From positions 84,552 to 148,551 of IMG/VR virus record IMGVR_UViG_3300028805_000056: DNA of 64,000 bases; one strand, written 5' to 3'. The DNA comes from a virus. Lineage: Duplodnaviria; Caudoviricetes. A model generated the notes under the pieces. The model was not told where the DNA came from, did no database searches, and saw only the letters and a list, made by a program, of their open reading frames with translations. This document shows, piece after piece, positions 32,052 through 52,759 of this stretch (positions are counted from its first letter, which is position 1; each line of letters opens with the position of its first letter). The position numbers and the translations under genes were made by a program.

Positions 32052-32285
32052 ATGAAAGCACCTGACAAGATTTATCGTACAACAACTTATCTTGACAATG
32101 ATAAAGGTAAAACGTTGTGGAAAGAGGCTCCGGCTAAAGGGGCAGAAAATATTGAATATACACGAACTGATACCTTTATTGATAAGGCTGTTAATTTTTT
32201 TATTCCATACATTCGAGATAATAGTGGTGGATATGAGAGAGCAGCCGTTATTGAAGATTTCAAAAACTATATGAAAAGTGAATAA
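32052..32285 (+). CDS. paralog family B protein
   Basis: APDKIY / IEYTRTD.FI.KA / IEDFKNYMK.E. Confidence 0.85.
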   Translation: MKAPDKIYRTTTYLDNDKGKTLWKEAPAKGAENIEYTRTDTFIDKAVNFFIPYIRDNSGGYERAAVIEDFKNYMKSE

Positions 32286-32287
32286 CT

Positions 32288-32761
32288 ATGGAAAAGGAAA
32301 TTAACATTATAGCCCCAGAAGGCTACGAAATTGACAAAGAAAATAGTACACTTGAGTGTATTAAGTTCAAAGCAATCCAAAAGAAGAAAAGGTGGAGAGA
32401 TAAAGATGCCGTAATAGGAGGATATTATATAAATGACTCCTCTGAAATTATATTTGCTAAATGTCATAATACGCTTGCTAATTGTAATGTTTTCGCAACT
32501 AAAAAACAAGCCAAATCAGCACTTGCTATGGCAAGAATTAGTCAGATTATGGCTAATGATGAAAGATTTGGTGGTGTTGTAACTGATGAAGAGTGGGCTG
32601 ACGATGATTTATTCAAGTTTGCTATCACAAGAAAAAATAATCACATTGAGACAGCAATTTATGGTAGTTATTATGATTTCCTCGCCTTCCACACAAAAGA
32701 ACAAAGAGATTTATTTCTTAAAGAGAATGAGGATTTAGTAAAAGATTATTTAATGCTTTGA
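32288..32761 (+). CDS. hypothetical phage protein
   Basis: 157-aa ORF in array. Confidence 0.75.
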   Translation: MEKEINIIAPEGYEIDKENSTLECIKFKAIQKKKRWRDKDAVIGGYYINDSSEIIFAKCHNTLANCNVFATKKQAKSALAMARISQIMANDERFGGVVTDEEWADDDLFKFAITRKNNHIETAIYGSYYDFLAFHTKEQRDLFLKENEDLVKDYLML

Positions 32762-32767
32762 TTTAAT

Positions 32768-33832
32768 ATGGACTACGAAAAGAGATATGAAAAACTTGTT
32801 GATGCAGTAAAAGTGCTGCGAGATAACAATCCATCTGACGAAGGTATTCAGAATTGGGTTAATGACAATGTGCCCGAACTCAAAGAGAGTGAGGGCGAAA
32901 AAATAAGGAAATGGCTTATCGCTCAACTTGAACTTAAATCAGATATTAATAACCAACGTGATTTAGAATTGATGATTCTAAAAGCTATTGCTTGGCTTGA
33001 AAAACAGGGTGAAGTAGATAACCCACACAACTATCTATATGGTGAGCGGAAGTCGGTTGATAAAGTTAAGCCAAAGTTCAAGGTTGGTGATTGGGTAGTA
33101 GATGATTACGGTTTAATATGGAAAATAGGAGGAATCCTAAAACAATTTTATCTCTTAGAAGGTGTAGGAGGGGGTGAATCACGTCCTACAATAGAACGGG
33201 TTGATAAGACCTATCATCTTTGGTCATTGAAGGATGCAAAGGATGGTGATGTGCTTGTTGCTTCTGATGATTCTGTCTTTATTTATGCAGGTTCAACAGA
33301 TATACATGCACAATTTTATATAGCATTAACTAAATATGGTGATTTCAATACTAAAGGCGGCAATTGGGAAGACAAAAATTGTGTCAAACCTGCAACCAAA
33401 GAGCAACGTGACCTCTTATTCCAAAAGATGAAGGAAGCGGGTTATGAATGGGATGCTAAAAATAAAGAATTGAATAAGATTGAAGATGAGCCTGTTACTA
33501 TAATTCCAAAATTTAAAGTTGGAGATATTATCAGGCATAAGAAACAAGGTTTTACATGTAAAATAACTGCCGTTGATACGGAATATAGATTATCTGAATG
33601 TAATGGAACTCATTTGCCTTTTGACTGTCAAGATTATTATGAACTTGTAGATGAAAATCCTGCTTGGAGTGAAGAAGATGAAGAAAATCTTAATCAATTA
33701 CATAAACTTATTGTAAAAAAAGCGTATGAGGAATATGAAATTGATACTGAAGATGAAACTCTTTGGGGCAAACATGCTATTTTAGATAATTGGCTCAAAT
33801 CTTTGAAAGAAAGAATAAAAGGAGGACATTAA
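32768..33832 (+). CDS. paralog family E modular protein
   Basis: IAWLEKQ, PKFKVGD x2, HLWSLKDAKDGDVL, PATKEQRDLLFQKM.EAGY.WD, WSEEDE, NWLKSLK. Confidence 0.9.
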   Translation: MDYEKRYEKLVDAVKVLRDNNPSDEGIQNWVNDNVPELKESEGEKIRKWLIAQLELKSDINNQRDLELMILKAIAWLEKQGEVDNPHNYLYGERKSVDKVKPKFKVGDWVVDDYGLIWKIGGILKQFYLLEGVGGGESRPTIERVDKTYHLWSLKDAKDGDVLVASDDSVFIYAGSTDIHAQFYIALTKYGDFNTKGGNWEDKNCVKPATKEQRDLLFQKMKEAGYEWDAKNKELNKIEDEPVTIIPKFKVGDIIRHKKQGFTCKITAVDTEYRLSECNGTHLPFDCQDYYELVDENPAWSEEDEENLNQLHKLIVKKAYEEYEIDTEDETLWGKHAILDNWLKSLKERIKGGH

Positions 33833-33835
33833 ATT

Positions 33836-35002
33836 ATGACTACAGAAGAAAAGGCAAAACGTTTTGATGAAGTTGTTGAAGAATTTAGAGGACTTTTAGA
33901 AGGCGTTCATGAAGATAAATGTGATATTATGGAAGAAGATATATTAAAAATTGTTCCTGAATTAAAAAGATCAGAAGATGAGAGGATAAGGAAGGAACTT
34001 TTGGAGCATTGTAAGAATCAAGCTAAACCATATATTCAGACAGGAAATAAATGTCCTCAAATTCAATCTTGGATTGCCTGGCTTGAAAAGCAAGATGAAC
34101 AAAAACCTGCTGATAAATTTGAACCAAAGTTTAAGGTTGGTGACTGGATTGTTTGGAAAGACAAGAACTATAAAGTCAATTATAATGCTTGTGGATATGA
34201 ATTGTTTGACCAAAATGGTTTAAGTACATCTTGGGCTTATAAAACTATTGAAGATAATGCCCATCTTTGGTCATTAAAAGATGCAAAGGATGGTGACGTG
34301 CTTGCTTGCAATGAAGAAATTTTACTATTCAAATCATATTCAGTACAAAACCGTATCTCTTTATACTGTTGGTATAACGGGCAAACAAATAATTTCCATG
34401 ATAAAGAAGTGACTGATACTTTAGTAACTACAAGAAATAAGATATGCCCTGCCACTAAAGAACAACGTGACCTTTTATTCCAAAAGATGCACGAAGCGGG
34501 TTATGAATGGGATGCTGAAAAGAAAGAACCGAAGAAGATTCATGTTATTGATGAAGGCAAGGCTGAAATGGACTATTGTTCTAAAATGATGAATGGTGAG
34601 AAGGTAAGTCCAACTTGGACTGAAGAGGATGAAAAGATGGTGAAGGATATAATAGCAGCTATCGATACATTATATTATCATGGAATGGTGAACTGGCTCA
34701 AATCCATCAAAGACAGAGTACAGCCACAGCCAAAGCAAGAGTGGAGTGATGAAAATAAAAACATAATTGACGGTATAATTGAATATCTTGAATGTTTTAA
34801 TGATTACGATTGTGGTGACGAGCCATATGAAGAATATTATGAAAGATTCGAAAAATACATTAAATTTATGGAGTCGCTTAAACCACAACCTCAGTGGAAA
34901 CCAAGTGAAGAGCAGATGAACGAATTAACCTGTGTTATTAGCGGGTGTTCTTATGAAACCCCAATATTGATAGAGTTATTAGAACAACTAAAAAAACTTT
35001 AA
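33836..35002 (+). CDS. paralog family E modular protein
   Basis: Same anchors plus extra QEWSDE and QWKPSEEQM modules. Confidence 0.9.
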   Translation: MTTEEKAKRFDEVVEEFRGLLEGVHEDKCDIMEEDILKIVPELKRSEDERIRKELLEHCKNQAKPYIQTGNKCPQIQSWIAWLEKQDEQKPADKFEPKFKVGDWIVWKDKNYKVNYNACGYELFDQNGLSTSWAYKTIEDNAHLWSLKDAKDGDVLACNEEILLFKSYSVQNRISLYCWYNGQTNNFHDKEVTDTLVTTRNKICPATKEQRDLLFQKMHEAGYEWDAEKKEPKKIHVIDEGKAEMDYCSKMMNGEKVSPTWTEEDEKMVKDIIAAIDTLYYHGMVNWLKSIKDRVQPQPKQEWSDENKNIIDGIIEYLECFNDYDCGDEPYEEYYERFEKYIKFMESLKPQPQWKPSEEQMNELTCVISGCSYETPILIELLEQLKKL

Positions 35003-35307: not shown

Positions 35308-35583
35308 ATGGAAGCACCAGAGAAGATTTATATGCCAAATGAATTGCTATTAGAAGAATGGCAAAGACACATTGAAGGAGAGGATATTGAGTATGTTCGC
35401 ACTGATTCATTTTTTGAGAAGGCAAAAGATTGGTTCATAACGCATGTCAATATTCCACAAGATGTTGCAACTAATGAGGATGGAGAGCCATTAGCAGACA
35501 GTTATATCAAGTATGCGAAAGCAAGATTCAATGCAGCAAATGAAATGTTTGAAAACTTCAAAAACTATATGAAAGGAGAATAA
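35308..35583 (+). CDS. paralog family B protein
   Basis: APEKIY / IEYVRTD / FKNYMKGE. Confidence 0.85.
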   Translation: MEAPEKIYMPNELLLEEWQRHIEGEDIEYVRTDSFFEKAKDWFITHVNIPQDVATNEDGEPLADSYIKYAKARFNAANEMFENFKNYMKGE

Positions 35584-35584
35584 T

Positions 35585-35854
35585 ATGAAAGACAGCGAAA
35601 TAATTTATAGTATTTATGAATTCATGTCAGACAACGTTTTTGGCTTGTCATTAATATCAATCTGTATTTTTTCTATTTATTTAATGTTTTTTTGGGAAAA
35701 TAAAGTGAGATGGTGGCTTAGATTACCAATTATAAACTTATTGCTTTTTGTCCTTTTAATTATTGGAGGGACTATAGAAGAAATCTATCTTACCTTTCAC
35801 CCGAAAGAACGAACAAAGTACATCAAAACAAGCATTTTTGATAGATTTTTTTAA
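35585..35854 (+). CDS. small membrane protein
   Basis: Two hydrophobic segments. Confidence 0.65.
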   Translation: MKDSEIIYSIYEFMSDNVFGLSLISICIFSIYLMFFWENKVRWWLRLPIINLLLFVLLIIGGTIEEIYLTFHPKERTKYIKTSIFDRFF

Positions 35855-35856
35855 AT

Positions 35857-36075
35857 ATGGAAGCACCTGACAAGATTTACTTGGAAAAAGTATATCCAGA
35901 TAACGGGATTTTGCCTAATGGACTTAATTATAATCAAAGTCCAAATGATATTGAATACACCCGAACTGATGCCTTTATTGAGAAGACTTGCAAGTTTCTT
36001 TTTGAAAATTATCACGGAGAGAAACTATCATTAAGAATGATTGAGGACTTCAAAAATTATATGAAAGGAGAATAA
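35857..36075 (+). CDS. paralog family B protein
   Basis: APDKIY / IEYTRTDAFIEK / IEDFKNYMKGE. Confidence 0.85.
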   Translation: MEAPDKIYLEKVYPDNGILPNGLNYNQSPNDIEYTRTDAFIEKTCKFLFENYHGEKLSLRMIEDFKNYMKGE

Positions 36076-36078
36076 ACT

Positions 36079-36234
36079 ATGACAAAAGAAGAATTAGTAC
36101 AGTTTTTGAAAGATAACTTAAAAATAAAAATTGTTGCAGACAAATATTGTGACAATGGCTATGACATAATAGTAAAGGTATTATTGGGTGATGATTGTAT
36201 TTCAGAATGTTCCGATTATATTATAGTAAGATAA
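36079..36234 (+). CDS. small hypothetical protein (51 aa)
   Basis: MTKEELVQFLKDNL...; fills the gap between array genes exactly. Confidence 0.6.
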   Translation: MTKEELVQFLKDNLKIKIVADKYCDNGYDIIVKVLLGDDCISECSDYIIVR

Positions 36235-36237
36235 ATT

Positions 36238-36675
36238 ATGACACAAGAAGAAAAAGAGCTGTTAGTGAAGTATCTCTGTATGGCATTGCCTTATAATGTG
36301 AAATGCAATGTTCCAACTTATAATTTTGCAATGACACTTACAGGCAAAAGATTAAACTATTTCTGCTTTCATAAAAATGAGTGGGGTATTGATTATAGCC
36401 ATGAGATTGAAGCAGTGTTAGACCCGTTGAATGACCAAAATAATGATTATGTTGTCAAGCCCTATCTCCGCCAGATGTCAAGTATGACTGAGGAAGAAAT
36501 AAATGAATATAATGAGTATCTTTTTTATGGTTCTTCAATAGGGTTGTCGTCAAATACAGTAACCGCCTATGAACTTATTAATTGGCTCCTCAAAAATCAT
36601 TTTGACTTCTTGGGTTTGATCTCTAAAGGATTGGCTATTGAAGTAACAGAAGAGAATAATCCTTATAAAGAATAA
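36238..36675 (+). CDS. paralog family A protein
   Basis: Family A anchors. Confidence 0.9.
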   Translation: MTQEEKELLVKYLCMALPYNVKCNVPTYNFAMTLTGKRLNYFCFHKNEWGIDYSHEIEAVLDPLNDQNNDYVVKPYLRQMSSMTEEEINEYNEYLFYGSSIGLSSNTVTAYELINWLLKNHFDFLGLISKGLAIEVTEENNPYKE

Positions 36676-36678
36676 ATT

Positions 36679-36939
36679 ATGAAAGCAAACGAAGTACCGG
36701 AGAAAATTTATGTAACAGAAGGTATGTTGTTTATGACAAATCCTGAAATAACTTTACGGGGAAATGGTAATAAAATTGAGTACACTCGAACTGATGCCTT
36801 TATTGAGAAGGCTTGCAATTTTATTAGAATCAATGCATATAAATATCGCAAATTAAAGTTTGTTAAAAATAAACCAACTTTTGACTTTCGTACAGATTGG
36901 CTTATTGAGGATTTAAGAAATTATATGAAAGGAGAATAA
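36679..36939 (+). CDS. paralog family B protein
   Basis: PEKIY / IEYTRTDAFIEKAC / IEDLRNYMKGE. Confidence 0.85.
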   Translation: MKANEVPEKIYVTEGMLFMTNPEITLRGNGNKIEYTRTDAFIEKACNFIRINAYKYRKLKFVKNKPTFDFRTDWLIEDLRNYMKGE

Positions 36940-36942
36940 ACT

Positions 36943-37077
36943 ATGAAACTGATTATACACGATTTGGACAACAATGTCGTAGATGTGATAATTTGTAAAA
37001 CACCAATTTCCAAAGGTATTAAGGAAGCTAAAAAGAAATATCCGCCAGGAAAATATACAGCAACTTTAACATTTTAA
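36943..37077 (+). CDS. small hypothetical protein (44 aa)
   Basis: Starts ATGAAACTGAT like family C but unrelated body. Confidence 0.5.
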   Translation: MKLIIHDLDNNVVDVIICKTPISKGIKEAKKKYPPGKYTATLTF

Positions 37078-37082
37078 AATAT

Positions 37083-37466
37083 ATGAGCCTGATAGACAAA
37101 GACGCTTTAAAGGTGGAGATAGAGAAAGAGATAAAAGACATTTATGCAGGTAGAGAATATGTCGGCATCCCTTCTTGGGAGGAAAGAGAAATTGACGGAT
37201 TAGAAAAAGCAATAGAAATCTTGAACACCCTTGAAGTGAAAGGGGTGGACTTAGAGAAGGAAATAACTTTATGGGCAAATGCAAATCCAGAAATACGACT
37301 TGATGACGTTGAAAGACTTGCAAAGCATTTCTTTGAATTAGGCATTAAAGTAAGTAGGATGACCGCTGTTTTAGATAGTGGAATTGCGGAGGAATTTATA
37401 TTAGACCTTAAAAGGCTTGAAAACGACTATAAGCGGCTGATGAAAAAGATACAGAAAGGAGAATAA
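37083..37466 (+). CDS. paralog family C protein with 33-aa insertion in tail
   Basis: LIDKD / NTLEVK.VDLEKE / AKHFFELGIKV-[insert]-QKGE. Confidence 0.85.
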   Translation: MSLIDKDALKVEIEKEIKDIYAGREYVGIPSWEEREIDGLEKAIEILNTLEVKGVDLEKEITLWANANPEIRLDDVERLAKHFFELGIKVSRMTAVLDSGIAEEFILDLKRLENDYKRLMKKIQKGE

Positions 37467-37508
37467 ATAGCCACCAAATGTTAAAATTATGTTAAAAACA
37501 TGAATTTC

Positions 37509-37540
37509 CTTGGTCAATTTAAAAAATTGTAGTACATTTG
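37509..37540 (+). promoter_or_regulatory. class I sigma-A promoter
   Basis: CTTG-N20-TACATTTG followed by CAGCAGAAAACAAAAA. Confidence 0.75.
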
Positions 37541-37711
37541 CAGCAGAAAACAAAAAACAAAGATAAGAAACTATGACAATCAGAGAAAGAATACAACGCA
37601 TTGCTACAAAGGCAAACGTACCATATGGAACAATAAGCATTTTGGTGAACAGTTTCTATGGGAAGGGAAGCATTCCTTTTGAGGACAGAATTGAATTACT
37701 TGAAAAACAAT

Positions 37712-37915
37712 ATGAAATACATGGGAATAACAGTCGGACGAATTGTTGAAGGGTTTTGTATCCTCCCTTCTATTAATTTAACTTGGGCAACATTAAAAGT
37801 AAAAGATAAACTGCCTGGTAATTATGCTACATATTATGACCTGCAATTTGCATGGCTATTTTGGTATTTTACTATTGGACAGATTAAAAACAAGTTAAAG
37901 GAACAAGGGTATTAA
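37712..37915 (+). CDS. hypothetical protein
   Basis: ORF in array. Confidence 0.55.
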   Translation: MKYMGITVGRIVEGFCILPSINLTWATLKVKDKLPGNYATYYDLQFAWLFWYFTIGQIKNKLKEQGY

Positions 37916-38259
37916 ATGAAAAATTGTGAATAAACTATGAGAATTAATTATGCAGAACTCTATGGCGTAGCAGATAATGAATCAGATTTCAGTGGTGCTA
38001 TTAAGAGGTCACTTAATATGGGGATGATGCATCTTGGGGAGAATTTTATAGAGACCATAAATAAAATTAGAAAAAAAGGGGAGTAGACTATGACACAAGA
38101 AGATAAAGAAAACATCATCTATTGGTTTGAACATATTGCACAAATTGCAGATGACAGGAAAACTGCCAATGGTGTAGTTATGGAAGATTGGGCTGCCCTT
38201 GATGAAATTAGGGCAATTGCCAAAGACAGTATATATTATATCAAAAATCATTGTAATTT

Positions 38260-38655
38260 ATGACAAAAGAAAATAAAGAACTATTAATGAAATACCTCTG
38301 TATGGCATCGCCATATGATGTTATAGTTGATTACGAGAATCATATCTATATACTTAATGAGGTTAACCCAGCTTGTAAGGATATGGACTATATTACTGTT
38401 CTCATACAAGATGTAGAAAGATTAATGTGTGCTGAAAACGAAATGATAGAAGACATTAAGCCATATCTCCGTCCAATGTCAAGTATGACTGAGGAAGAAT
38501 TAAAAGAATTTCAAGAATTTAGAAACATTACTCCATTAGATTGGCTTCCTCTTGCACTTGATTGGCTTCTTGAATATCATTTTGACTTTATGGGTTTAAT
38601 TCCCAAAGATTTGGCTATTGAAGTAACTGAAGAAAACAATCCGTATGAAAATTAG
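38260..38655 (+). CDS. paralog family A protein
   Basis: Family A anchors. Confidence 0.9.
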   Translation: MTKENKELLMKYLCMASPYDVIVDYENHIYILNEVNPACKDMDYITVLIQDVERLMCAENEMIEDIKPYLRPMSSMTEEELKEFQEFRNITPLDWLPLALDWLLEYHFDFMGLIPKDLAIEVTEENNPYEN

Positions 38656-38887
38656 AGTTGGATTCGGCACAAACGGTGACATATATGCAGACTTAGAGAA
38701 AGTGAAAGCCTGTAATTTTTGTACGCATTTCAAAGGTTATGGTCTCCATGCTTGTACTGGGCACTGTTTTAAACTTGAAAAAGACATAGACGGAGGCTAT
38801 ATAGGAAATTATAGTAAAGTAGCTCAAGAATGTGATGTTTTCAATGTTAGACCCGAACTAATTGAAAATAATCCATATAAAGAATAA
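38645..38887 (+). CDS. Cys-rich protein carrying the family A tail
   Basis: CNFCTH..C..HC; ends ENNPYKE. Confidence 0.7.
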   Translation: MKIRVGFGTNGDIYADLEKVKACNFCTHFKGYGLHACTGHCFKLEKDIDGGYIGNYSKVAQECDVFNVRPELIENNPYKE

Positions 38888-38891
38888 AGTT

Positions 38892-39362
38892 ATGACACAA
38901 GAAGAAAAAGAACTATTACTGAAGTACCTTTGTATGGCATTGCCTTATGGGGTAATCGTTGACTACAAGGAAAATGAATTTGAATTACCACATTGGAAAA
39001 TAACAACCATTCATCCAGAAACATTGAGTGGTTGGATTGGTTATGACAAGAGAGTCGGAGCAGGTTCTGAAAGTGGTAGCAGACATTTTAAGATTGGGGA
39101 TGTGAAACCCTATCTCCGTCCAATGTCAAGTATGACTGAGGAAGAGAAGGAGGAAATGCACAATCTATTATCTCCTGAAGGAACCGCAATTTATGGCTAT
39201 GATGGAATTAGTATGCCAATGAATCATTATGGTGAGTTTGTTTCTTATGAGTTTATGAATCGCATCATTCAATATCTTCTTAAAAATCACTTCGACTTCA
39301 TGGGTTTAATCCCTAAAGATTTGGCTATTGAAGTAACTGAAAGTAATAATCCCTATAAGTAA
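38892..39362 (+). CDS. paralog family A protein
   Basis: Family A anchors; ATG at 38892. Confidence 0.9.
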   Translation: MTQEEKELLLKYLCMALPYGVIVDYKENEFELPHWKITTIHPETLSGWIGYDKRVGAGSESGSRHFKIGDVKPYLRPMSSMTEEEKEEMHNLLSPEGTAIYGYDGISMPMNHYGEFVSYEFMNRIIQYLLKNHFDFMGLIPKDLAIEVTESNNPYK

Positions 39363-39366
39363 AGTT

Positions 39367-39561
39367 ATGACATATATACCTGAAAGTAAAATAAAATCAT
39401 ACATAGAATATTGTAAAGATAAAACATTTAATGTAGTATGTGATTGCGGAGATATAGTAGAGGTAAGTCTTACACCGTATTTCTATGATGAGAAAGAAAA
39501 TGATGTATATTTCGCATCATTGTGCCCTAAATGTGGAAAATTGATAATTACTAAAGAATAA
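39367..39561 (+). CDS. small zinc-ribbon protein
   Basis: CDCG ... CPKCG. Confidence 0.7.
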   Translation: MTYIPESKIKSYIEYCKDKTFNVVCDCGDIVEVSLTPYFYDEKENDVYFASLCPKCGKLIITKE

Positions 39562-39749: not shown

Positions 39750-40151
39750 ATGAACAAGATTTGTACCTCATTAGAACAATCCAAGAAACTCATAGAGTTA
39801 GGAATTGATGTTAAAACTGCTGATATGTGTTGGACTAATCATTTATTCAATGCATTTCTTTCAAGTTGGAGAATTGAAAGTACTCCACCACAAGAATATA
39901 AGAATCTTTTAGATAGGTTTGTAGTAAGAGGTTATCTTATAGAACCCGCATGGAGTCTTACGGCATTAGAACAATTGATGCCCAAAATTGGAGCACACGA
40001 ACCAATGCTGCGTAAGCTGTATTACATAAGTGAACCAACAGAGAGATATATTTGCCAATATAGTTTAACTGACATGACGAGTGAATACGACAATCCTGTT
40101 GATGCTTGTTATGAAATGGTTTGTTTTTTAAAAGAAAACGGAAAGATATGA
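39750..40151 (+). CDS. paralog family D protein
   Basis: KICT..EQSKKL.ELGID..TADM / PAWSL.AL / DA..EMV..LKENGKI. Confidence 0.85.
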   Translation: MNKICTSLEQSKKLIELGIDVKTADMCWTNHLFNAFLSSWRIESTPPQEYKNLLDRFVVRGYLIEPAWSLTALEQLMPKIGAHEPMLRKLYYISEPTERYICQYSLTDMTSEYDNPVDACYEMVCFLKENGKI

Positions 40152-40486
40152 AACTGATTGACAAAGATAGAGTAATGACAATACTATCAAATAAGATAGC
40201 AGATATAGAACTTGACATGAAGTGTGGCTTTCTTAAGAAAAGGAAAGGAGTTAATAATATACTTGTCCTTAAACATATTATTTCTCTCATTGATACAATT
40301 GAGGTGAAAGATGTTGACTTAGGGGATATTATAGACACATATATAAATAACCATTATAGTGAAGGATGTGATAAAGGTATGATAAGTGACGCAAATAGGG
40401 ATATAGGCGGTGTTACTTATTTTGATCTTATGGACATTGCCAAACATTTCTTTGAATTAGGCATTAAAGCACAGAAAGGAGAATAA
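40148..40486 (+). CDS. paralog family C protein
   Basis: MKLIDKD / DTIEVKDVDL / AKHFFELGIKAQKGE. Confidence 0.85.
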   Translation: MKLIDKDRVMTILSNKIADIELDMKCGFLKKRKGVNNILVLKHIISLIDTIEVKDVDLGDIIDTYINNHYSEGCDKGMISDANRDIGGVTYFDLMDIAKHFFELGIKAQKGE

Positions 40487-40803: not shown

Positions 40804-41055
40804 ATGGAAACGCACTATATAGACAAATCCGCTATAAAACAAAAAGTTCAAGAAAAGTTACTTGATGCTTGTACAAGACATTATGAGGCAGAAATGGCGT
40901 TATGTGAAATCGCCGCGCCACAATCATGGAAAGATGAAGCAAAGGCGGCATGGGAGGAATTTGTTTGGAGATATCAAGACTATGAGTTAGTTTTTAAATA
41001 TGATATGGATATAACGAAAGATGACTTAAATTATGACGATTATGAAACTGATTGA
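40804..41055 (+). CDS. hypothetical protein
   Basis: METHYIDK... Confidence 0.6.
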   Translation: METHYIDKSAIKQKVQEKLLDACTRHYEAEMALCEIAAPQSWKDEAKAAWEEFVWRYQDYELVFKYDMDITKDDLNYDDYETD

Positions 41056-41440
41056 TAAAGATGCTTTAAGAACGGAAATAGAGAGAAGAATTTCAACATA
41101 TAAACGTCACTATGAAGAGTTAGTACGTTATGAAGTATGGAATGATGCTAAAAAAATAGAACCAAAGATTAATGAATTGGAAAATTTACTTTCTTTTATT
41201 AACACCATTGAAGTAAAAGAGGTGGAAACTTGGCATTTACAAGAAAAAGAAGATATATATGATGCAGTTAAAGATTGGGGTCTTTACAAATTTGTATGTA
41301 TAATGAAAGATGGAACTATCCAAAGATTTAATGGATGCCTTGATGAAGATTGTGAAGGGCATATTAATGTACATATAAATGGAATTAATGATGATTATGA
41401 TGATGTTGATGACATTGTAAAATGGATAGAAATCACTTAA
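41042..41440 (+). CDS. chimeric family C protein
   Basis: Family C N-half to INTIEVKEV, unrelated C-half; out-of-frame family C tail follows the stop. Confidence 0.8.
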   Translation: MKLIDKDALRTEIERRISTYKRHYEELVRYEVWNDAKKIEPKINELENLLSFINTIEVKEVETWHLQEKEDIYDAVKDWGLYKFVCIMKDGTIQRFNGCLDEDCEGHINVHINGINDDYDDVDDIVKWIEIT

Positions 41441-44351: not shown

Positions 44352-44358
44352 ATTTCTT

Positions 44359-45279: not shown

Positions 45280-45460
45280 AATTTTCATTTAAATTATATA
45301 CTATAAATATAAGCATATCTATCAAAATATCAAGGAAAAACCAATAAAATGCGGGGGTTTAATCAATTATTGATTGTGTTTTTAAAATGAACAAAACGAT
45401 TTGGTCCGGTATTTATGTATAGTGTGGACCTCATAACGATTTAAATAAATACTAGCGAGT

Positions 45461-45991
45461 ATGGTAGATAAATCAAAGCAAAAGAAACATTATTACAAAC
45501 ACATCAGGGATGAGAAACCCAAGAAAAAGTCTCACAAAGAAAGAAAGGAGAATGAAATAACAGAGAAGCAGAAGGAAGAAATCATCAGGAAGAATCTAAG
45601 GTACTTCAAGGTTTACACCGCAGAGAACATAGATGAAGCCAAGTCGGAAGAAGTCAAGGAGACCTTCAAGAAACTAACGGATATGGCAAACGACCTGCTT
45701 AAAAGCCCGACAAGGGGTGAGGAACAGATGAAGGAGATACTTGAAAGCAAGAACATTGAATTCATACAGCAATATCCGATAGTTGACACTCACAAACACA
45801 GGTACATAATTGACTTCTATTTACCGAAACACAAGAAATACATAGAGATAGACGGCGGGTATCACGATAAACCCGAACAAATAAAGAGAGACAAGAAAAA
45901 GGAGAATATACTTAATGCTACAGGGAGAAAACTTATAAGATATACAAATGACGAGGTAAGGAAAATGTATCTCGAACTTTTGGGGAGTTAA
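45461..45991 (+). CDS. Vsr/DUF559-like endonuclease
   Basis: PTRGE, F.QQYPI, YIIDFY, IEIDGGYH, D..K, IRYTN. Confidence 0.85.
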   Translation: MVDKSKQKKHYYKHIRDEKPKKKSHKERKENEITEKQKEEIIRKNLRYFKVYTAENIDEAKSEEVKETFKKLTDMANDLLKSPTRGEEQMKEILESKNIEFIQQYPIVDTHKHRYIIDFYLPKHKKYIEIDGGYHDKPEQIKRDKKKENILNATGRKLIRYTNDEVRKMYLELLGS

Positions 45992-46002
45992 AAATAATTT
46001 GG

Positions 46003-46031
46003 AATGCGGTTAGAAATAGCCGCATTTTTTT
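46003..46031 (+). terminator. intrinsic terminator
   Basis: AATGCGGTTA/TAGCCGCATT stem plus T-run. Confidence 0.75.
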
Positions 46032-46057
46032 GTATATTTGTAAAAAACGTATTGGAA

Positions 46058-46375
46058 ATGTTAACTACAGATGAATTGTTGAAGAAACTGCCTTCACATA
46101 TTGGAAGAAACCAACTGAAGGATGAAAATGGGGAAACCATTGCTTATGTGTCCGACAATAAGGACGGTGGTGACATTGGTTGGCTATATCTGCATAATGA
46201 CGGAAGGGATTGGCGTGCCTCCTACGGAATAGAGGGGAAGTTTGTTTGTATGAACCCAGATGTTGAAGAACCGCCATACGACAATGCATTTGCTTATGGT
46301 AATACACCAAATGAGGCTTTGCAGAAATTATATGATTGGTGTGTTGATCACAATTTTATAAAAAAAGATGGTTAA
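46058..46375 (+). CDS. hypothetical protein
   Basis: ATG after TATATTTG at 46033. Confidence 0.7.
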   Translation: MLTTDELLKKLPSHIGRNQLKDENGETIAYVSDNKDGGDIGWLYLHNDGRDWRASYGIEGKFVCMNPDVEEPPYDNAFAYGNTPNEALQKLYDWCVDHNFIKKDG

Positions 46376-46378
46376 AAA

Positions 46379-46410
46379 TTTGGCCAATTGGAAAAATTGT
46401 CGTACCTTTG
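46379..46410 (+). promoter_or_regulatory. class I sigma-A promoter
   Basis: TTTG-N20-TACCTTTG. Confidence 0.85.
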
Positions 46411-46422
46411 CATCGTGAATGA

Positions 46423-46456
46423 AATGAAGGCTGTGTTTGTCAGCCGAAAACAAAAA
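46423..46456 (+). repeat. 34-nt leader hairpin element, copy 2
   Basis: AATGAAGGCTGTGTTTGTCAGCCGAAAACAAAAA. Confidence 0.85.
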
Positions 46457-46467
46457 GAATAAAAGAT

Positions 46468-46656
46468 ATGGCATACATTAAGAATAATACTTATGAAATT
46501 GGAGATTGGGTACTTACAACAAGAGTTCATGAATCAATGGTTGGTAAATTTACAAGGGGAAGTCTGGTAAAAATCACTGATATAGACCCAATTCGAGGAT
46601 ATACCATTGAAGATGAGGATGGGAATAGAGTTTGTGAAATTGGTTGGATAATTTAA
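46468..46656 (+). CDS. small SH3/KOW-like hypothetical protein
   Basis: YEIGDWV...G..VKI pattern. Confidence 0.55.
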   Translation: MAYIKNNTYEIGDWVLTTRVHESMVGKFTRGSLVKITDIDPIRGYTIEDEDGNRVCEIGWII

Positions 46657-46671
46657 ATTAAAAAATAAGTT

Positions 46672-47106
46672 ATGAATAAGATTTGCACGGACATAGAACA
46701 ATCCAAGAAACTATTAGAACTTGGGATTGATGTAAATACTGCTGATATGTTTTATTTAAGGGCAGATATTGCACTTGGAGAAATTGAATGTTATCCCAAT
46801 GTCTTGCATCGTGAAGAGGTTGGTGATGATATTCCTGCTTGGAGTCTTTCTGCTTTATTGAAATTTATAAAAAGTGAGATTTATGGGGAAACTATCTATG
46901 GTGATACCATAACATACGAGGTTGATTTCCGCAAATACAAATTAACAGATGATGTTGACTTGTATCAAATTGCATATGGCAGCATAAAATTTGACGTAGA
47001 TGGTCAGCATTCATTTAAGGATATGGTTAATACCGGTCAGAAAGAAAACCCTATTGATGCGGCTTTTCAAATGGTAGTTTGGCTAAAAGAAAATGGAAAG
47101 ATATGA
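46672..47106 (+). CDS. paralog family D protein
   Basis: Family D anchors. Confidence 0.88.
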   Translation: MNKICTDIEQSKKLLELGIDVNTADMFYLRADIALGEIECYPNVLHREEVGDDIPAWSLSALLKFIKSEIYGETIYGDTITYEVDFRKYKLTDDVDLYQIAYGSIKFDVDGQHSFKDMVNTGQKENPIDAAFQMVVWLKENGKI

Positions 47107-47253
47107 CACAAGAAGAAGCAATAAAGGAATTTTGCGAACTACATTTGAATACAGATTGGTCTGGTACACATGTAGAAACCAAATATAAATGTGAAAGTGT
47201 AGATGAATTTGTAAATAAACTTTTGAATTATATTGAAGAACATGAATAAAACT

Positions 47254-47655
47254 ATGACAGAATCATTTATTCAAAAATTAGCAGAAGAAAGGGCAGATTG
47301 TATTTTTCAGCCTGAATATTATAAGCATGTAACTGATTCTTGGTATCTTGATGAAAAGTTCCGATTTGAAGACTTGAAAGTTGGACCTGAAGGAAGAAAA
47401 CCAACTAAGAAAGAAGCAGATGTTTATATGGGATATTTGTCTGATTTATTTGAAAAATATAGAGATAAATGGTATGGTGATGTATTGGCTCAAGATTATT
47501 ATGCTAAGTGTATTGGTTTCTTTCATCAGATATTTGATACTATAGAAATTGGCAATAAGACATATTCTCAATTCAATATAGATGAAGAAACAATTAAAAA
47601 GTTAAAAGAAATTGCTAATATATTTGTAACTAAACATAACGAATTTTGTATATGA
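47254..47655 (+). CDS. hypothetical protein
   Basis: ORF in array. Confidence 0.65.
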   Translation: MTESFIQKLAEERADCIFQPEYYKHVTDSWYLDEKFRFEDLKVGPEGRKPTKKEADVYMGYLSDLFEKYRDKWYGDVLAQDYYAKCIGFFHQIFDTIEIGNKTYSQFNIDEETIKKLKEIANIFVTKHNEFCI

Positions 47656-47987
47656 AAAATGTTTTAGTACTTTTGGGTATTTTCATTGTCTTATTTAGTG
47701 GTGCAATGTATTACCAAACAACAGATGAGTTTGATGCCAAGGTCTATTCAATAAATGTACAACAAAAAATTAATGGTCTTGAATCTGGTGTTAATACAAC
47801 CTATTCATACATTGTTGGTACAGATAGAGGGGTTTATAATATTTCCCCGGATGGAATATTTGCATCAAAACATTTTGGAACCCTTGAAAAAGATAGCACA
47901 TATCATTTTTTTACAAGAGGTATATCTATCCCACTTATCGGGGTTTATCCCTATATCATAACAGCACATTCTAAGAAAGGAAAATAA
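47652..47987 (+). CDS. membrane-anchored hypothetical protein
   Basis: N-terminal TM; G..IP.IG.YP.I motif. Confidence 0.65.
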   Translation: MKNVLVLLGIFIVLFSGAMYYQTTDEFDAKVYSINVQQKINGLESGVNTTYSYIVGTDRGVYNISPDGIFASKHFGTLEKDSTYHFFTRGISIPLIGVYPYIITAHSKKGK

Positions 47988-48002
47988 CTAACGAAACAAA
48001 AT

Positions 48003-48410
48003 ATGTGCAACATTGGTCCAAGAGGGAGGCAAGGAGGCGTCCCGGAGAACATTTCCAAAATGGCGGAAAAATACCAGAAAGGCATTAAGCCGCCCTACGA
48101 CAAGGATGATATAATTTCCGCCTTTGAATGCGGCTATATGAAAGCACAATCACAAAAACCCCTAACAGATATGACAAGAAGAGAAGAGATAATACAAGCC
48201 GCTAATAATTATAAAACTCATTTTCCTGACGGTTTTATAAATGAGTTCATTTATATTGATGGTGCAGAATGGGCAGATAAAACTATGCTTGATAAGGTTT
48301 GTGAGTGGCTTAAATCATACAGACAAGATACCAATGACGGCACAGGTTACATTGCAGGTATTGTGAATGATAAGACTATTGAAGATCTTCGTAAAGCAAT
48401 GGAGGAATAA
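48003..48410 (+). CDS. paralog family F protein
   Basis: MLDKVCEWL...IEDLRKAMEE shared with 61960..62154. Confidence 0.75.
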   Translation: MCNIGPRGRQGGVPENISKMAEKYQKGIKPPYDKDDIISAFECGYMKAQSQKPLTDMTRREEIIQAANNYKTHFPDGFINEFIYIDGAEWADKTMLDKVCEWLKSYRQDTNDGTGYIAGIVNDKTIEDLRKAMEE

Positions 48411-48413
48411 GTT

Positions 48414-49523
48414 ATGGACTACGAAAAACAATTAAAAGAAGCATTGTCGGATGTAAATACACCTTATGTAATTACTTCTTGGATAGAGGAAAACTTTCCC
48501 CAACTCAAAGAATCAAAAGATGAGGGGATAAGAAAGGCGATACTCACAGGTCTTATTGATTGTAGAGACGCACCAGATTTGTGGTGGTCTGATTTTGGCG
48601 GAATCCCTATTGATGATTGTATCGCTTGGCTTGAAAAACAAGGTGAGCAGAATCCTTATAGCGGTACATCATTTGAATACAATGGTCATACTTGGGGTAT
48701 GTGTGCAAGAGACAACGGTGTGGAAATTCTCTTTGATGGAGAACTTAAAGCATTTCTTTCAACAGAAAAATCATTCATCTATCCCATTCATCCTCAACCA
48801 GACCTTACACCTAAAAATGCAATGGAAGCAATCAAGGAAGAAAAGGTTGACAATGCTAATAAGGTTGAACCAAAGTTCAAGGTTGATGATTTTATTAAAC
48901 ACAACAAGGCAAACATTATCTGCAAAGTCATTGCGGTTAATAGTAATGACAATTCTTATTATGTAGAAAATATTGGGATAGATGGTAGTCGAATTGAACT
49001 TTCCAATGCAGAACAAAATTTTCACCTTTGGACTATCCAAGACGCAAAGGAAGGTGATGTGCTTGTAACAGATAATGGTAATACTTTTATATATCACAAA
49101 CATGATAGTAATTATGTATACTATCATTGTTCAATTAACTATTTTGATAACATTACTATAAATTCAAGTTGGAATGTTTTAAGGATTAAGCCAGCGACCA
49201 AAGAACAATGTGACCTCTTATTCCAAAAGATGAAAGAAGCAGGTTATAACTGGGATGCTGAGAAGAAAAAGTTGGGAAAACGTGTGATTGATGAAGGCAA
49301 ATCTGAAATGGACTATTGTTTCACTAAGATGATGAATGGTGGAAAGATAAATCCTGCTTGGAGTGATGTTGATGAGTATACATTATATGAAACAATTAAA
49401 CACCTTGAAGAACTTATTATAATTGATAAATCAAAACATTGCGGTGTTGATGTGCAGTATTATCAAAGAGATATTGATTGGCTCAAAACTTTAAAAGACA
49501 GAATGAAAGGAGGACAATTATGA
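48414..49523 (+). CDS. paralog family E modular protein
   Basis: MDYEK, IAWLEKQ, EPKFKV, HLWTIQDAK.GDVL, PATKEQ.DLLFQKMKEAGY, IDEGK.EMDYC. Confidence 0.9.
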   Translation: MDYEKQLKEALSDVNTPYVITSWIEENFPQLKESKDEGIRKAILTGLIDCRDAPDLWWSDFGGIPIDDCIAWLEKQGEQNPYSGTSFEYNGHTWGMCARDNGVEILFDGELKAFLSTEKSFIYPIHPQPDLTPKNAMEAIKEEKVDNANKVEPKFKVDDFIKHNKANIICKVIAVNSNDNSYYVENIGIDGSRIELSNAEQNFHLWTIQDAKEGDVLVTDNGNTFIYHKHDSNYVYYHCSINYFDNITINSSWNVLRIKPATKEQCDLLFQKMKEAGYNWDAEKKKLGKRVIDEGKSEMDYCFTKMMNGGKINPAWSDVDEYTLYETIKHLEELIIIDKSKHCGVDVQYYQRDIDWLKTLKDRMKGGQL

Positions 49524-49810
49524 AACGTGAAAATTTAAAAGAAGCAGAAACCATTATAAAAAGAATTACAAGGTTTGAGGAAATGATAAAATGGTACGAG
49601 CGGTTTAGTGTGGTAGAAAATTCTCCATATAGCGTATTTGTTAATTTAATAAAATTGGTTTGTGGGAAAAAGAAACGTGCTGAATTAGAAGTGGCGTATA
49701 ATTATGACACTGATTATTCTGTAGGTTTATCCGATGAACAACAGAAAGAACTAATTGAATTAGTCAATAAATGGTTAGCGGAAGATAAGAAAAAGTTGGA
49801 GGAGTTATAA
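49520..49810 (+). CDS. hypothetical protein
   Basis: ATGA overlap. Confidence 0.65.
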   Translation: MKRENLKEAETIIKRITRFEEMIKWYERFSVVENSPYSVFVNLIKLVCGKKKRAELEVAYNYDTDYSVGLSDEQQKELIELVNKWLAEDKKKLEEL

Positions 49811-49812
49811 CT

Positions 49813-50334
49813 ATGATTACACAAGAAGAAAAAGAACTATTACTGAAAGACCTTTGTGCAAGGTTGCCGTATGGTGTTGTGGTCAATTATAATGGGTTAG
49901 CACAACCCCTGTTTAGCGTTGCACCAACACAGCATTTTCAAATCACACTTGATAATGCGTTGGACGGCAAACACAACGGTTTGGCGTATGTCAGCCTTGA
50001 TGTTGATGGTGAAGAACCAAAACCTTATCTTCGTCCAATGTCAAGTATGACAGAGGAAGAAAAAGAAGAATTGCAAAAAATAACCAATAATAAATTTTAT
50101 GCACATTACAATTACATATCAAATTCTAAACCGTCTACAGATAGCGAATGGCATACTCCACACAATAATTTTGTAACAAGTGTTGAATGCAACAAGACCA
50201 TCTCGTGGTTGGATGAAAAATATTTTGACCATAGAACTGATGAAGAAGGAAAAACATTAATTGAAAAAGGTCTTGCATTGGAAGCACCTGAAGGAATGTA
50301 CAATAAAAAGAGCAGTTATGAAACAAGAAGATAA
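49813..50334 (+). CDS. paralog family A protein
   Basis: TQEEKELLLKDLCARLPYG / KPYLRPMSSMTEEE / LIEKGLALE. Confidence 0.88.
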   Translation: MITQEEKELLLKDLCARLPYGVVVNYNGLAQPLFSVAPTQHFQITLDNALDGKHNGLAYVSLDVDGEEPKPYLRPMSSMTEEEKEELQKITNNKFYAHYNYISNSKPSTDSEWHTPHNNFVTSVECNKTISWLDEKYFDHRTDEEGKTLIEKGLALEAPEGMYNKKSSYETRR

Positions 50335-50767
50335 AGAACTACTGTTAAAAGACCTCTGTTCGAGGTTGCCTTATGGGGTAAAATGTATATTATCAGAATA
50401 TCACATAGAAGAATTTCCGTACAATGGAACATATTGTGATAAAGTCCTTAATTTGGGGATAAACGGTTCTACAATAAATTTATTAAACCATATAGAAAAA
50501 TATGGTGTTAAACCATATCTCCGTCCAATGTCAAGTATGACTGAGGAAGAAAAAAGAGAAATTTACAATTGGCTTGTGGAAAATGATGTTGATTGGTTTG
50601 ATTTTAGCAAACTCAGACTTGATGAAATACTAATATCATTTGACAGTTCTTGGTTGCTTGTAAATTGGCTTAACGCTCATCATTTCGACTATCGAGGACT
50701 GATTGAGAAAGGCTTGGCTATTGAAGTAACAGAAGATAATAATCCGTATGAACAGAACAAATCCTAA
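50318..50767 (+). CDS. paralog family A protein
   Basis: MKQEDKELLLKDLCSRLPYG / KPYLRPMSSMTEEE / HFDYRGLIEKGLAIEVTEDNNPY. Confidence 0.88.
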   Translation: MKQEDKELLLKDLCSRLPYGVKCILSEYHIEEFPYNGTYCDKVLNLGINGSTINLLNHIEKYGVKPYLRPMSSMTEEEKREIYNWLVENDVDWFDFSKLRLDEILISFDSSWLLVNWLNAHHFDYRGLIEKGLAIEVTEDNNPYEQNKS

Positions 50768-50879
50768 TTGTGAAGGTTGTATCCATATGGGAATAAGTGG
50801 ATGCTGTAGATATTGCAATACAGAAAAAGAATGTAAGAATAATAGTAATTATGAAAACAAAAATTTGTACAACTATTGA
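50748..50879 (+). CDS. small Cys-rich protein (43 aa)
   Basis: MNRTNPNCEGCIH...CCRYC; ATG embedded in family A tail as at 38645. Confidence 0.5.
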   Translation: MNRTNPNCEGCIHMGISGCCRYCNTEKECKNNSNYENKNLYNY

Positions 50880-51249
50880 ACAATCCAAGAAACTACTAGA
50901 ACTTGGGATTGATATTAATACTGCTGATATGCACTATTCTACTTGGACAATTTTGAATGGAGAATATATTTTATCTCCAAATCAAGGAGAAACAATAGAA
51001 GAACTACAAGAAGATTATGGAAATCAGGTTATTCCTGCTTGGAGTCTTGCTGCATTACTGAGTATTATACCAAAGCATATTGGTGATTCAGTATTTAGAA
51101 TGGATATGGGTGAAACTGATATTGCTTTATGGTTTGATGATTTATCATCTGGTACAGTAGACGAAAATTTACCGGATATTACAGAAGAAAATTTTGTTGA
51201 TGCCGCATTTGAAGTGATATTGAAGTTAAAGGAGAAAGGCTTACTATGA
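50851..51249 (+). CDS. paralog family D protein
   Basis: Family D anchors. Confidence 0.88.
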   Translation: MKTKICTTIEQSKKLLELGIDINTADMHYSTWTILNGEYILSPNQGETIEELQEDYGNQVIPAWSLAALLSIIPKHIGDSVFRMDMGETDIALWFDDLSSGTVDENLPDITEENFVDAAFEVILKLKEKGLL

Positions 51250-51312
51250 GTGATGATGTTATATTAGGAGAAGAAGCACTAATAGAATTATATAGTAAAA
51301 TCAACTAATATT

Positions 51313-51633
51313 ATGACAAAGGAAGAACTTAATCAGTTAATGCAAGGAAAAGACGAAGTTGAGGTTATTCTTTATACTGCTTCTTCACCCGTTGGTTTAT
51401 GCTATAAATTTGATACTTTTGGAGAATTCGTAGAGTTAATTAAAAATCAAAATGAAGAGAAAACAAATGAATTATCCGAAGAAGATATAAAGAATTTAAA
51501 TAGAATATCAACGATTCTTTATGAAGCTGGTCAAGTACAAAATTGGTGGAAAGAAGAGAGATTAATTCCAAGAGAAGAGTCAGATTATTTATGTAATTGG
51601 CTTAAATCATTATATAATAAATTAAAGTTATGA
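51313..51633 (+). CDS. chimeric protein with family E C-terminal module
   Basis: LSEED..NLN....NWLKSL on unrelated N-half. Confidence 0.7.
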   Translation: MTKEELNQLMQGKDEVEVILYTASSPVGLCYKFDTFGEFVELIKNQNEEKTNELSEEDIKNLNRISTILYEAGQVQNWWKEERLIPREESDYLCNWLKSLYNKLKL

Positions 51634-51908
51634 AACTGATAGACAAAGACGCTTTAGTAGCAGAGATAGATAAACAAAAGATTGGTTATAATACAGATGG
51701 TAATCATTCCGTAGAGTATGATACAACAAGAAAGATTCTTGACATCATCAACACCCTTTCAGTGAAAGAGGTGGACTTGGAGAAAGAGGTTAAAGATTAT
51801 ATCTACACACTTCCACATTCACGTACAGGTATTCCTGGAGGTTGGAAATGCTCTTGGCCAGAGGAAGAAGTAATAAAAATTGTAAAACATTTTTTGGACT
51901 TGGATTAA
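51630..51908 (+). CDS. paralog family C protein, frameshifted tail
   Basis: MKLIDKDAL / NTLSVKEVDLEKE; tail continues in another frame. Confidence 0.8.
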   Translation: MKLIDKDALVAEIDKQKIGYNTDGNHSVEYDTTRKILDIINTLSVKEVDLEKEVKDYIYTLPHSRTGIPGGWKCSWPEEEVIKIVKHFLDLD

Positions 51909-52053
51909 AAGCAAAGAAAGGAGAGGGAAATGAATAACTACATAAACGCAATGTATTACATGTATTATAATTACGGAGGCTATAATTTTTATACAAATAA
52001 AATAAAAAGAATACATAACAAAAGAAAACTTAAATCACAAAAAGAAGAATATT

Positions 52054-52350
52054 ATGAAACTGATTGACAAAGACAAAATTGTGGCGGAGATAGAAAGAAT
52101 TACAGATGTTCTTGAAAAGAATAGCGGTTATTATGGAATTTTTGGTGACGCTCAGATGTCAATTTGTGAAAAAATTCTTTCTTTCCTTGACACCCTTTCA
52201 GTGAAAGAGGTGGACTTGGAGAAGTATTATCACGACTTTTTACAAAAGGAATGGTTTGATAAAAATTGTAATAGAACAATGTCGGAAATGATGGCTTTTA
52301 CCGCAAAACATTTCTTTGAATTAGGCATTAAAGTACAGAAAGGAGAATAA
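52054..52350 (+). CDS. paralog family C protein
   Basis: MKLIDKD / DTLSVKEVDLEK / AKHFFELGIKVQKGE. Confidence 0.88.
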   Translation: MKLIDKDKIVAEIERITDVLEKNSGYYGIFGDAQMSICEKILSFLDTLSVKEVDLEKYYHDFLQKEWFDKNCNRTMSEMMAFTAKHFFELGIKVQKGE

Positions 52351-52351
52351 T

Positions 52352-52552
52352 ATGAAGGTCAGAAATTTGATAAAGTTCTTAATGGACTTTGATATGGATG
52401 CGGAAATTGTTGTTAGTACTGACAACACTTTTGATGATTACGAAGAAATGGATATATCATGGGGAGGACCAAATTATGGTGACGGTGCGGGTAAAGAAGA
52501 TGCAGAGTTTATCTACATTAATAATTTAATAGATAACAGACCAGAAACATGA
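52352..52552 (+). CDS. hypothetical protein
   Basis: MKVRNLIKFLMDFDMDAEIV. Confidence 0.65.
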   Translation: MKVRNLIKFLMDFDMDAEIVVSTDNTFDDYEEMDISWGGPNYGDGAGKEDAEFIYINNLIDNRPET

Positions 52553-52759
52553 AAGGAGAATAAAGTTATGATAAAGAAGTTTCTCAACAGACTATTTTGT
52601 AATCATTGTTACGTATATAGACAAGATATAATTAAAACATTTCATGAGGCGGATTTTTCTGATTTTGGGTATAATACGTGGTCAGAAAGATATGAAGTAT
52701 ATGAGTGTATAAAATGTGGGAAAAAGAAATATAAACACATTGATTGAAAATGGTAAGAT

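Follow-up and report, generated by a model that had tools for sequence, protein, structure and literature searches.

The window analysed here is the last 64 kb (64,000 nucleotides, positions 84,552–148,551) of a 148,551-bp viral record (Duplodnaviria; Caudoviricetes; IMG/VR IMGVR_UViG_3300028805_000056), and it carries a long array of small, co-oriented genes that belong to recurring families. Positions are given in window coordinates, and "genome" coordinates refer to the whole record; genes are named by family letter with a w-number for a window coordinate or a g-number for a genome coordinate on the minus-strand arm described below (e.g., A_w50318 and A_g32804). The array was originally predicted, from the nucleotide sequence alone, to contain six families (A–F) in scrambled order, each with short conserved anchors around variable cores. 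All six families were recovered by all-versus-all BLASTP of the predicted proteins from the whole record, and every gene start given in the original prediction was a true open reading frame (ORF) start on the plus strand. The record contains nine members of family A (counting the overlapping gene A_w50318), six each of families C, D, and E, five of family B, and three of family F. Family F is the weakest, with w48003 matching w61960 at E 1.7e-4 over 46 residues and g47840 at E 1e-14.

The plus-strand arm comprises approximately 55 genes between 32,052 and 53,933, and most are separated by 1–6 nt or overlap. The predicted span of 32,052–52,563 was therefore too short, and the tight co-oriented packing was seen as described, with interruptions: two minus-strand genes lie at 43,566–45,288, the first encoding a glycosyltransferase according to Pfam and the second having no Pfam match, and a DUF559/Vsr-like endonuclease gene follows at 45,461. 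A minus-strand arm outside the window, at genome 32.8–53.9 kb, holds members of every family, which indicates that the phage has two inverted arms of the same families. Local gene order is partly common to both arms (B-157aa-E... and E-A).

Constant blocks alternate with variable segments in the alignment of every family, and the intervening segments differ in length and do not align, in agreement with the proposed anchor-variable-anchor design. In family A, the N-terminal block MTQEEKELLLKxLCxxLPYGV, the middle block KPYLRPMSSMTEEE, and the C-terminal block HFDxxGLIxKxLAIEVTEENNPYK are separated by unalignable first and second variable segments of 21–67 and 10–56 residues, respectively. The AlphaFold2 (AF2) model of the family A member at 36,238 had a predicted local distance difference test (pLDDT) score of 77.5; its confident core corresponds to the blocks, and pLDDT falls below 50 in the first variable segment. 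A family D member (pLDDT 80) was modelled as a variable sheet flanked by conserved helices, and here, as in family A, the constant blocks match the high-pLDDT core. Fold searches with the family A model gave no match in the PDB (best E 3.2, best Z 4.2, helical hairpin only), and those with the family D model gave only weak rows resembling double-stranded RNA-binding domains (E 0.01–0.3) and one uncharacterised viral protein (E 6e-5). Among the family representatives, the only Pfam match was a YccV-like SH3 stretch in E_w32768 (23.8 bits), and the only PHROGs match was a partial one, phrog_10841 (function unknown), on the family A C-terminal block. Protein-atlas look-alikes of the families were unnamed viral clusters only, and none of the more than 8000 clusters of family A in the metagenome protein database carries a name. 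For family D, the label Phage_ABA_S (15% of one cluster, score 0.76) was rejected as too weak.

Self-BLASTN of the record revealed many patches of 45–235 nt with 85–98% identity between paralogs that are otherwise 35–50% identical in protein sequence. A_w50318 and A_g32804, which lie on opposite arms approximately 100 kb apart, have about 185 nt in common at approximately 98% identity (three mismatches), covering the first variable segment and the middle block, whereas the N- and C-terminal blocks of A_g32804 belong to the A_w38260 subtype and those of A_w50318 to the other subtype. The alignment shows a core that was transplanted between two frameworks, with both breakpoints inside blocks. 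E_w32768 and E_g33586 are 96.9% identical over their last 160 nt, 137 nt of which are exact, and their N-terminal halves are only about 30% identical in protein. Exact identities between block copies range from 30 to 137 nt. A GENECONV-style permutation test, limited to gap-free columns, detected at least one pair with a global P <= 0.008 in each of families A to E; in family B, a single within-genome pair points to segment reassortment.

The blocks also agree at silent sites. Identical residues are encoded by the same codon in 63–68% of cases in families A–E and 59% in family F, compared with 40–46% expected from phage codon usage, whereas seven control paralog pairs outside the arrays (31–44% identity) gave 41–52% and are therefore saturated. 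Synonymous divergence in the anchors is thus not saturated, as the original prediction required. In addition, in 184 family A genes from approximately 70 contigs, the middle block favours codons that are rare in the background: CTC for Leu (56% versus 10%), CGT for Arg (70% versus 18%), TCA for Ser (71% versus 24%), and GAG for Glu (88% versus 30%). The C-terminal block is nearer to the background. The silent-site agreement and the rare-codon bias together indicate that the blocks are conserved as DNA, which could reflect ongoing homogenisation by recombination, direct selection on the sequence, or both.

The same segments were found in new combinations in other phages. Family A had 208 relatives in IMG/VR, mostly on contigs of 100–410 kb. 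Hidden Markov models of the six families matched 70 fetched loci of other phage contigs (given L-numbers here), in which the families occur together, in one orientation but in shuffled order, with as many as 15 A genes in a local run; five near-complete relatives (348–413 kb, two with terminal repeats) contained 5, 7, 20, 28, and 45 family A matches. Related phages thus differ in both family order and copy number. A comparison of 294 distinct A proteins gave 94 pairs with first segments at least 80% identical and second segments below 35%, 596 pairs with the reverse, and only 45 pairs alike in both. These proteins clustered into 199 classes by first segment and 196 by second segment, each class being of fixed length. 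A first-segment class that recurs is combined with three to six second-segment classes, and one class of second segments occurs with 29 classes of first segments. Half-genes of this phage are 87–92% identical in nucleotide sequence to genes on otherwise unrelated contigs, with boundaries at the middle blocks. In family D, for example, the first half of one gene in L006 corresponds to D_g52802 (88%) and the second half to D_w46672 (91%). The cores of families A and D, rather than aligning as ordinary diverged paralogs, form discrete classes that reassort across approximately 70 phage contigs. With within-genome chimeras that break in blocks and unsaturated silent sites, this bears out the proposal that the coding anchors are sites of exchange. 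Partial A matches were also observed at G002:C1:79793-80947 in a relative found via L020, within a 15-copy run; they cover model positions 1–69, 95–138, 2–24, and 61–138 and look like broken or split copies left by recombination.

Features of the array and its surroundings in window coordinates. Family assignments rest on BLASTP; L-numbers are loci of other phage contigs.
Feature	Position	Strand	Evidence or remark
Family A gene, outlying	303..677	+	end and junction (588-699) 97% nt identical to L006/L007
Promoter-like repeat	1,544; 11,247; 13,286; 29,719; 30,540; 31,971; 37,483; 46,353; 55,468		repeat search
Promoter repeat heading array (TTG ... TACCTTTGCA)	31971..32044	+	repeat families D1/D4, 8-9 copies in window
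Family B gene	32052..32285	+	BLASTP family; N-half 91.5% nt identical to minus-arm g50981
157-aa gene	32288..32761	+	paired with minus-arm g35575 (60% aa)
Family E gene	32768..33832	+	last 160 nt 96.9% identical to minus-arm E_g33586; weak YccV-like SH3 match
Family E gene	33836..35002	+	BLASTP and alignment
Family B gene, ends KGE-stop	35308..35583	+	BLASTP and alignment
Family B gene, ends KGE-stop	35857..36075	+	BLASTP and alignment
Family A gene, modelled member	36238..36675	+	BLASTP and alignment; AF2 pLDDT 77.5
Family B gene	36679..36939	+	BLASTP and alignment
Family C gene	37083..37466	+	BLASTP and alignment
Internal promoter repeat	37483..37556	+	repeat family D1
Family A gene	38260..38655	+	C block 91% nt identical to C block of minus-arm A_g32804
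80-aa Cys-rich singleton	38645..38887	+	starts in NNPYE end of preceding A gene; ends ENNPYKE-stop
Family A gene	38892..39362	+	BLASTP and alignment
Family D gene	39750..40151	+	BLASTP and alignment
Family C gene	40148..40486	+	end and junction repeated at 52,303-52,359 (repeat family D8)
Family C gene	41042..41440	+	BLASTP and alignment
DUF559/Vsr-like endonuclease gene, PvuRts1I-like N domain	45461..45991	+	Pfam E 4e-13; mid-array, adjoining two opposite-strand genes
Internal promoter repeat	46353..46426	+	repeat family D1
Family D gene, modelled member	46672..47106	+	codons 50-145 91% nt identical to L006/L007 gene; AF2 pLDDT 80
Family F gene	48003..48410	+	BLASTP
Family E gene	48414..49523	+	BLASTP and alignment
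Family A gene, A2 subtype	49813..50334	+	BLASTP and alignment
Family A gene, chimera	50318..50767	+	codons 1-78 match minus-arm A_g32804; codons 65-141 87% identical to L023 and L066 genes
Family D gene	50851..51249	+	codons 4-68 89-92% nt identical to L014 and L050 genes; second half unrelated
Family C gene	51630..51908	+	BLASTP and alignment
Family C gene	52054..52350	+	BLASTP and alignment
Family F gene, outlying, weak member	61960..62154	+	BLASTP

The record is linear, and its completeness was estimated at 41% by CheckV, which makes it a fragment of a phage of roughly 350 kb; we favour a jumbo phage of about this size with Bacteroidota-type hosts as the source. A promoter-like repeat of the Bacteroidota type (TTG ... 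TAnnTTTG, here GTACCTTTGCAGC) precedes gene blocks, including the array itself. Neighbouring genes encode DnaK, a TROVE-like RNA-binding protein, DNA methylases, glycosyltransferases, and a Pif1 helicase. No match to the array was found in 50,697 GenBank phage records, either by megablast of the 20.6-kb array or by tblastn of families E and A. The full-length DnaK/Hsp70 gene (18,713–20,599) is 58–65% identical to copies in uncultured-phage metagenomic records of 480–735 kb and other phage-labelled records. Other repeats were observed away from the array: four direct copies of a 163-nt unit, spaced 216–219 nt apart, form an internal protein repeat (repeat family D2) in the gene for a 1704-aa protein, at 7,356–8,169. 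Outside the window, tandem repeats with a period of approximately 100 bp, 80–86% identical, overlap the first ORF at genome 1–769, and two direct repeats, of 43 and 56 nt and both exact, link genome 43,570–43,762 with 62,383–62,606, approximately 19 kb away.

Starts and ends of array genes were predicted to be shared by unrelated singletons, and the motifs do occur far above chance. The start motif ATGACACAAGAA, with at most one mismatch, had 14 matches compared with 0.9 expected, all at gene starts, and the end motif AAAGGAGAATAA (KGE-stop) had 14 compared with 1.2 expected. Some of the shared ends, however, have simple causes: YETD-stop is a +1, out-of-frame reading of the family C start ATGAAACTGATTGAC, and GGAGAATAA is also present in the non-coding leader at 32,036 (32,036–32,047) and is similar to a ribosome-binding signal for which the arrays are enriched. 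GGAG precedes 21% of array genes compared with 3% elsewhere, and T is strongly preferred at position −1. These observations would fit an alternative in which the shared starts and ends (MTQE..., KGE-stop, and YETD-stop) are expression signals or by-products of overlap, not recombination handles; they could provide a context for translation initiation, embed a Shine-Dalgarno-like GGAG for coupling, or arise where one gene reads through into the conserved start of the next. This is possible, but we consider it rather unlikely. Exact ATGACACAAGAA was found at eight sites, every one of them on the plus strand within the window; the minus arm and the remainder of the record have none, a distribution that fits shared descent better than a general signal. 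The end of C_w40148, its stop codon, the spacer, and three codons of the next gene (40,439–40,495) recur at 52,303–52,359 with 96% identity, and there the homology stops, the downstream genes being unrelated. Moreover, the 80-aa singleton at 38,645 is bracketed by imperfect 20-nt direct repeats, GAAAACAATCCGTATGAAAA and GAAAATAATCCATATAAAGAA, which are duplicated A-end sequence. The junction homologies and the bracketed singleton suggest gene-level swapping at junctions, but the cases are few. Of the original proposal that both cores and cargo genes are swapped, the part concerning cores stands; for whole cargo genes as cassettes, only junction-limited homologies and this one anchor-flanked singleton were found.

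As a separate observation, the GGAG-containing junction AAAGGAGAATAA(N1-4)ATG is enriched in the arrays, with 14 sites at 35,572–52,563, which is odd for a Bacteroidota-type host, where Shine-Dalgarno sites are seldom used. The junction could be a coupling signal or the target of an early-mRNA nuclease like T4 RegB.

The whole of the evidence is probably best explained by inverted arms of mosaic families whose blocks are recombined by ordinary homologous recombination and gene conversion. Six or more undescribed multigene families recur in two inverted arms of small genes that are driven by host-type promoters and are probably early, each member consisting of a constant framework of two or three short blocks and one or two variable segments, which come from a large repertoire of discrete types. 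Because the blocks are conserved in DNA, silent sites included, with exact stretches of 30–137 nt, ordinary homologous recombination and gene conversion are expected to act on them. Copies within one genome, even on opposite arms, would exchange sequence with each other and with copies in related phages that share the host; half-genes would be traded at the middle block, and adjacent genes at end-start junctions.

Several points weigh against this explanation. The ends of BLAST patches coincide with block edges partly by construction, and the 120 database proteins used were top-scoring matches, which makes them a biased sample. Queries with a 434-aa singleton and the TROVE-like gene just upstream found no syntenic relative of 80–99% average nucleotide identity in IMG/VR; without DNA from such a relative, no recent event could be dated and no breakpoint was seen directly. 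Other assemblies of this phage keep an identical gene order, and turnover is not fast: a 157-kb contig in ENA, judged from its gene layout, agrees with the window in gene size and order for more than 20 kb, two Joint Genome Institute (JGI) contigs that come from a different sample reach 99.93% and 100% identity to it over 1,396 and 2,129 nt, respectively, and exact-protein look-ups of four array proteins returned the same gene order only, with no alternative contexts. Shuffling is therefore evolutionary and not a visible high-frequency process. The function of the families is argued from context only, given the lack of a Pfam family match or solved-fold match and the single partial PHROGs match. 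Finally, the noted absence of integrase, recombinase, and reverse transcriptase holds beyond the window: no integrase, reverse transcriptase (RVT_1), RecA/Rad51, RecT, ERF, YqaJ, or exonuclease family was found in the whole 148.5-kb record, which is 41% complete. An AAA_24 match is a Pif1-type helicase. In favour of the explanation, a RecA-like gene is present in three of the five near-complete relatives; the presence of such a gene does not track family A copy number.

The likeness to an integron-type cassette array that was drawn originally did not hold. Gaps of 1–6 nt leave no room for attC-like sites and the blocks are family-specific, which favours general homologous recombination and gene conversion over an integron-like machine. 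The blocks might instead be recombination hot spots selected as DNA, which a phage nuclease or recombinase may target (the DUF559 enzyme, for instance, or one encoded in the unassembled 59% of the genome), such that programmed combinatorial exchange diversifies libraries of early host-targeting proteins; we regard this as quite unlikely. If true, programmed exchange in jumbo Bacteroidota phages would give antigenic-variation loci a counterpart among phages. Also very unlikely is a dedicated cassette system driven by an enzyme, comparable with integrons or antigenic-variation loci, whose blocks would be targeted by the DUF559 endonuclease at 45,461 or by a nuclease or recombinase encoded in the part of the genome (59%) that is missing. 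Such a system could draw on the family-wide rare codons of the middle block, which suggest selection on the DNA itself, on the position of the endonuclease gene inside the array, and on the incompleteness of the record. However, 148.5 kb contain no integrase, reverse transcriptase, or single-strand annealing protein, the family-specific blocks have no common site or hairpin, and the short gaps between genes, the identical gene order in other assemblies, and the distribution of RecA-like genes among relatives all argue against such a system.

The families could also be ordinary old tandem paralogs, with blocks kept for the fold, segments that diverged fast, and no recombination beyond the original duplications. 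This view agrees with the coincidence of the blocks with the confident core of the AF2 models, and the local gene order shared by the arms does suggest segmental duplication. It is nevertheless highly improbable and already largely refuted, since the variable segments differ in length and form discrete, reassorting classes, one gene pair is approximately 98% identical in one half with flanks of different subtype, silent sites are unsaturated in the blocks and saturated in the control paralogs, and the permutation tests were significant. Chimeric joining by the metagenome assembler at repeated blocks can be dismissed, even though the record is a metagenome assembly with exact repeats of 30–137 nt, because the JGI and ENA contigs match the window and the same mosaic pattern occurs in approximately 70 independent contigs, which shows that the arrangement is not an assembly artefact.

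The promoters, the expansion, and the design of the families suggest that they may be diversifying early binders for host takeover or counter-defence. A combinatorial design is typical of arms-race proteins and makes the families good candidates for such binders, and they would form a natural scaffold-plus-loop library. Phage accessory genes are usually viewed as single ORFans that are gained and lost individually. In this case, gut and rumen jumbo phages of a large clade devote several percent of the genome to expanded families, one of which alone reaches up to 45 copies per genome, with members built combinatorially from a shared pool of half-gene cassettes. The arrays provide a concrete example, which metagenome reads could test, of silent sites in coding sequence that persist in step with recombination, and annotation and assembly alike can be misled by conserved gene starts and ends of this kind.

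Among known systems, integrons likewise line up small genes in one orientation behind a promoter, most of them without promoters of their own, and the order and content of these genes vary between relatives. Unlike in integrons, no IntI was found (no PF00589 match in the 148.5-kb, 41% complete record), and no attC inverted repeats were found between the genes, most of which overlap or have gaps of 1–6 nt; the repeats consist of coding blocks and stop-start junctions, and coding sequence specific to each family serves as the handle. A diversity-generating retroelement, which uses a reverse transcriptase and a pair of template and variable repeats that have the same length and differ at adenines, was rejected: there is no RVT_1 match in the record, and the variable segments are of unequal length and fall into discrete classes, and the length differences are not those of this type of mutagenesis.

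The gp38 adhesins of T2/T6-type phages were reportedly described by Tetart et al. in 1998 as having conserved glycine-rich motifs between hypervariable segments. Their later characterisation gives the same arrangement (Trojet et al., 2011, PMC3157838). In design only, the array families belong with gp38, in that a core of short motifs holds independent variable segments from a restricted palette that are recombined between phages. However, gp38 is a single-copy virion adhesin of known role, whereas here there are six unrelated families of small genes in a non-virion context, with 5–45 copies of family A per genome and no resemblance to gp38 in sequence or fold.

Multigene families of large DNA viruses include MGF360/505 of African swine fever virus and the ankyrin/host-range families of poxviruses. 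The array families share with them tandem, co-oriented paralogs in terminal or variable regions and a copy number that varies between relatives (nine A copies in this fragment and 5–45 in relatives), and they can be counted among such families. The viral families are described mostly as whole genes that diverge, and block-and-cassette reassortment with silent-site conservation is not in their description. A comparable lineage-specific expansion in a jumbo phage is exemplified by the zinc-ribbon family of approximately 35 copies in phage G (Iyer et al., 2021, PMC7824862).

Modular shuffling mediated by promoter-early stem-loop (PeSL) cassettes in the hyperplastic regions of T4-type phages (Arbiol et al., 2010, PMC2839356; Comeau et al., 2014, PMC4122927) similarly uses short repeats in early, non-essential regions as homology through which small ORFs are inserted, deleted, or replaced. 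PeSLs are intergenic regulatory elements, whereas the handles here are mostly coding blocks and stop-start junctions, and exchange also occurs inside genes. No intergenic promoter and stem-loop cassettes of the PeSL type were found in the array, where promoter repeats lie only at 31,971, 37,483, and 46,353 and most junctions have no intergenic space. In the literature searched, including papers on jumbo and huge phages, no description was found of these families, their scale, or coding handles with silent-site conservation. The mosaic design matches that of gp38, and the process of shuffling matches that of PeSL cassettes and viral multigene families.

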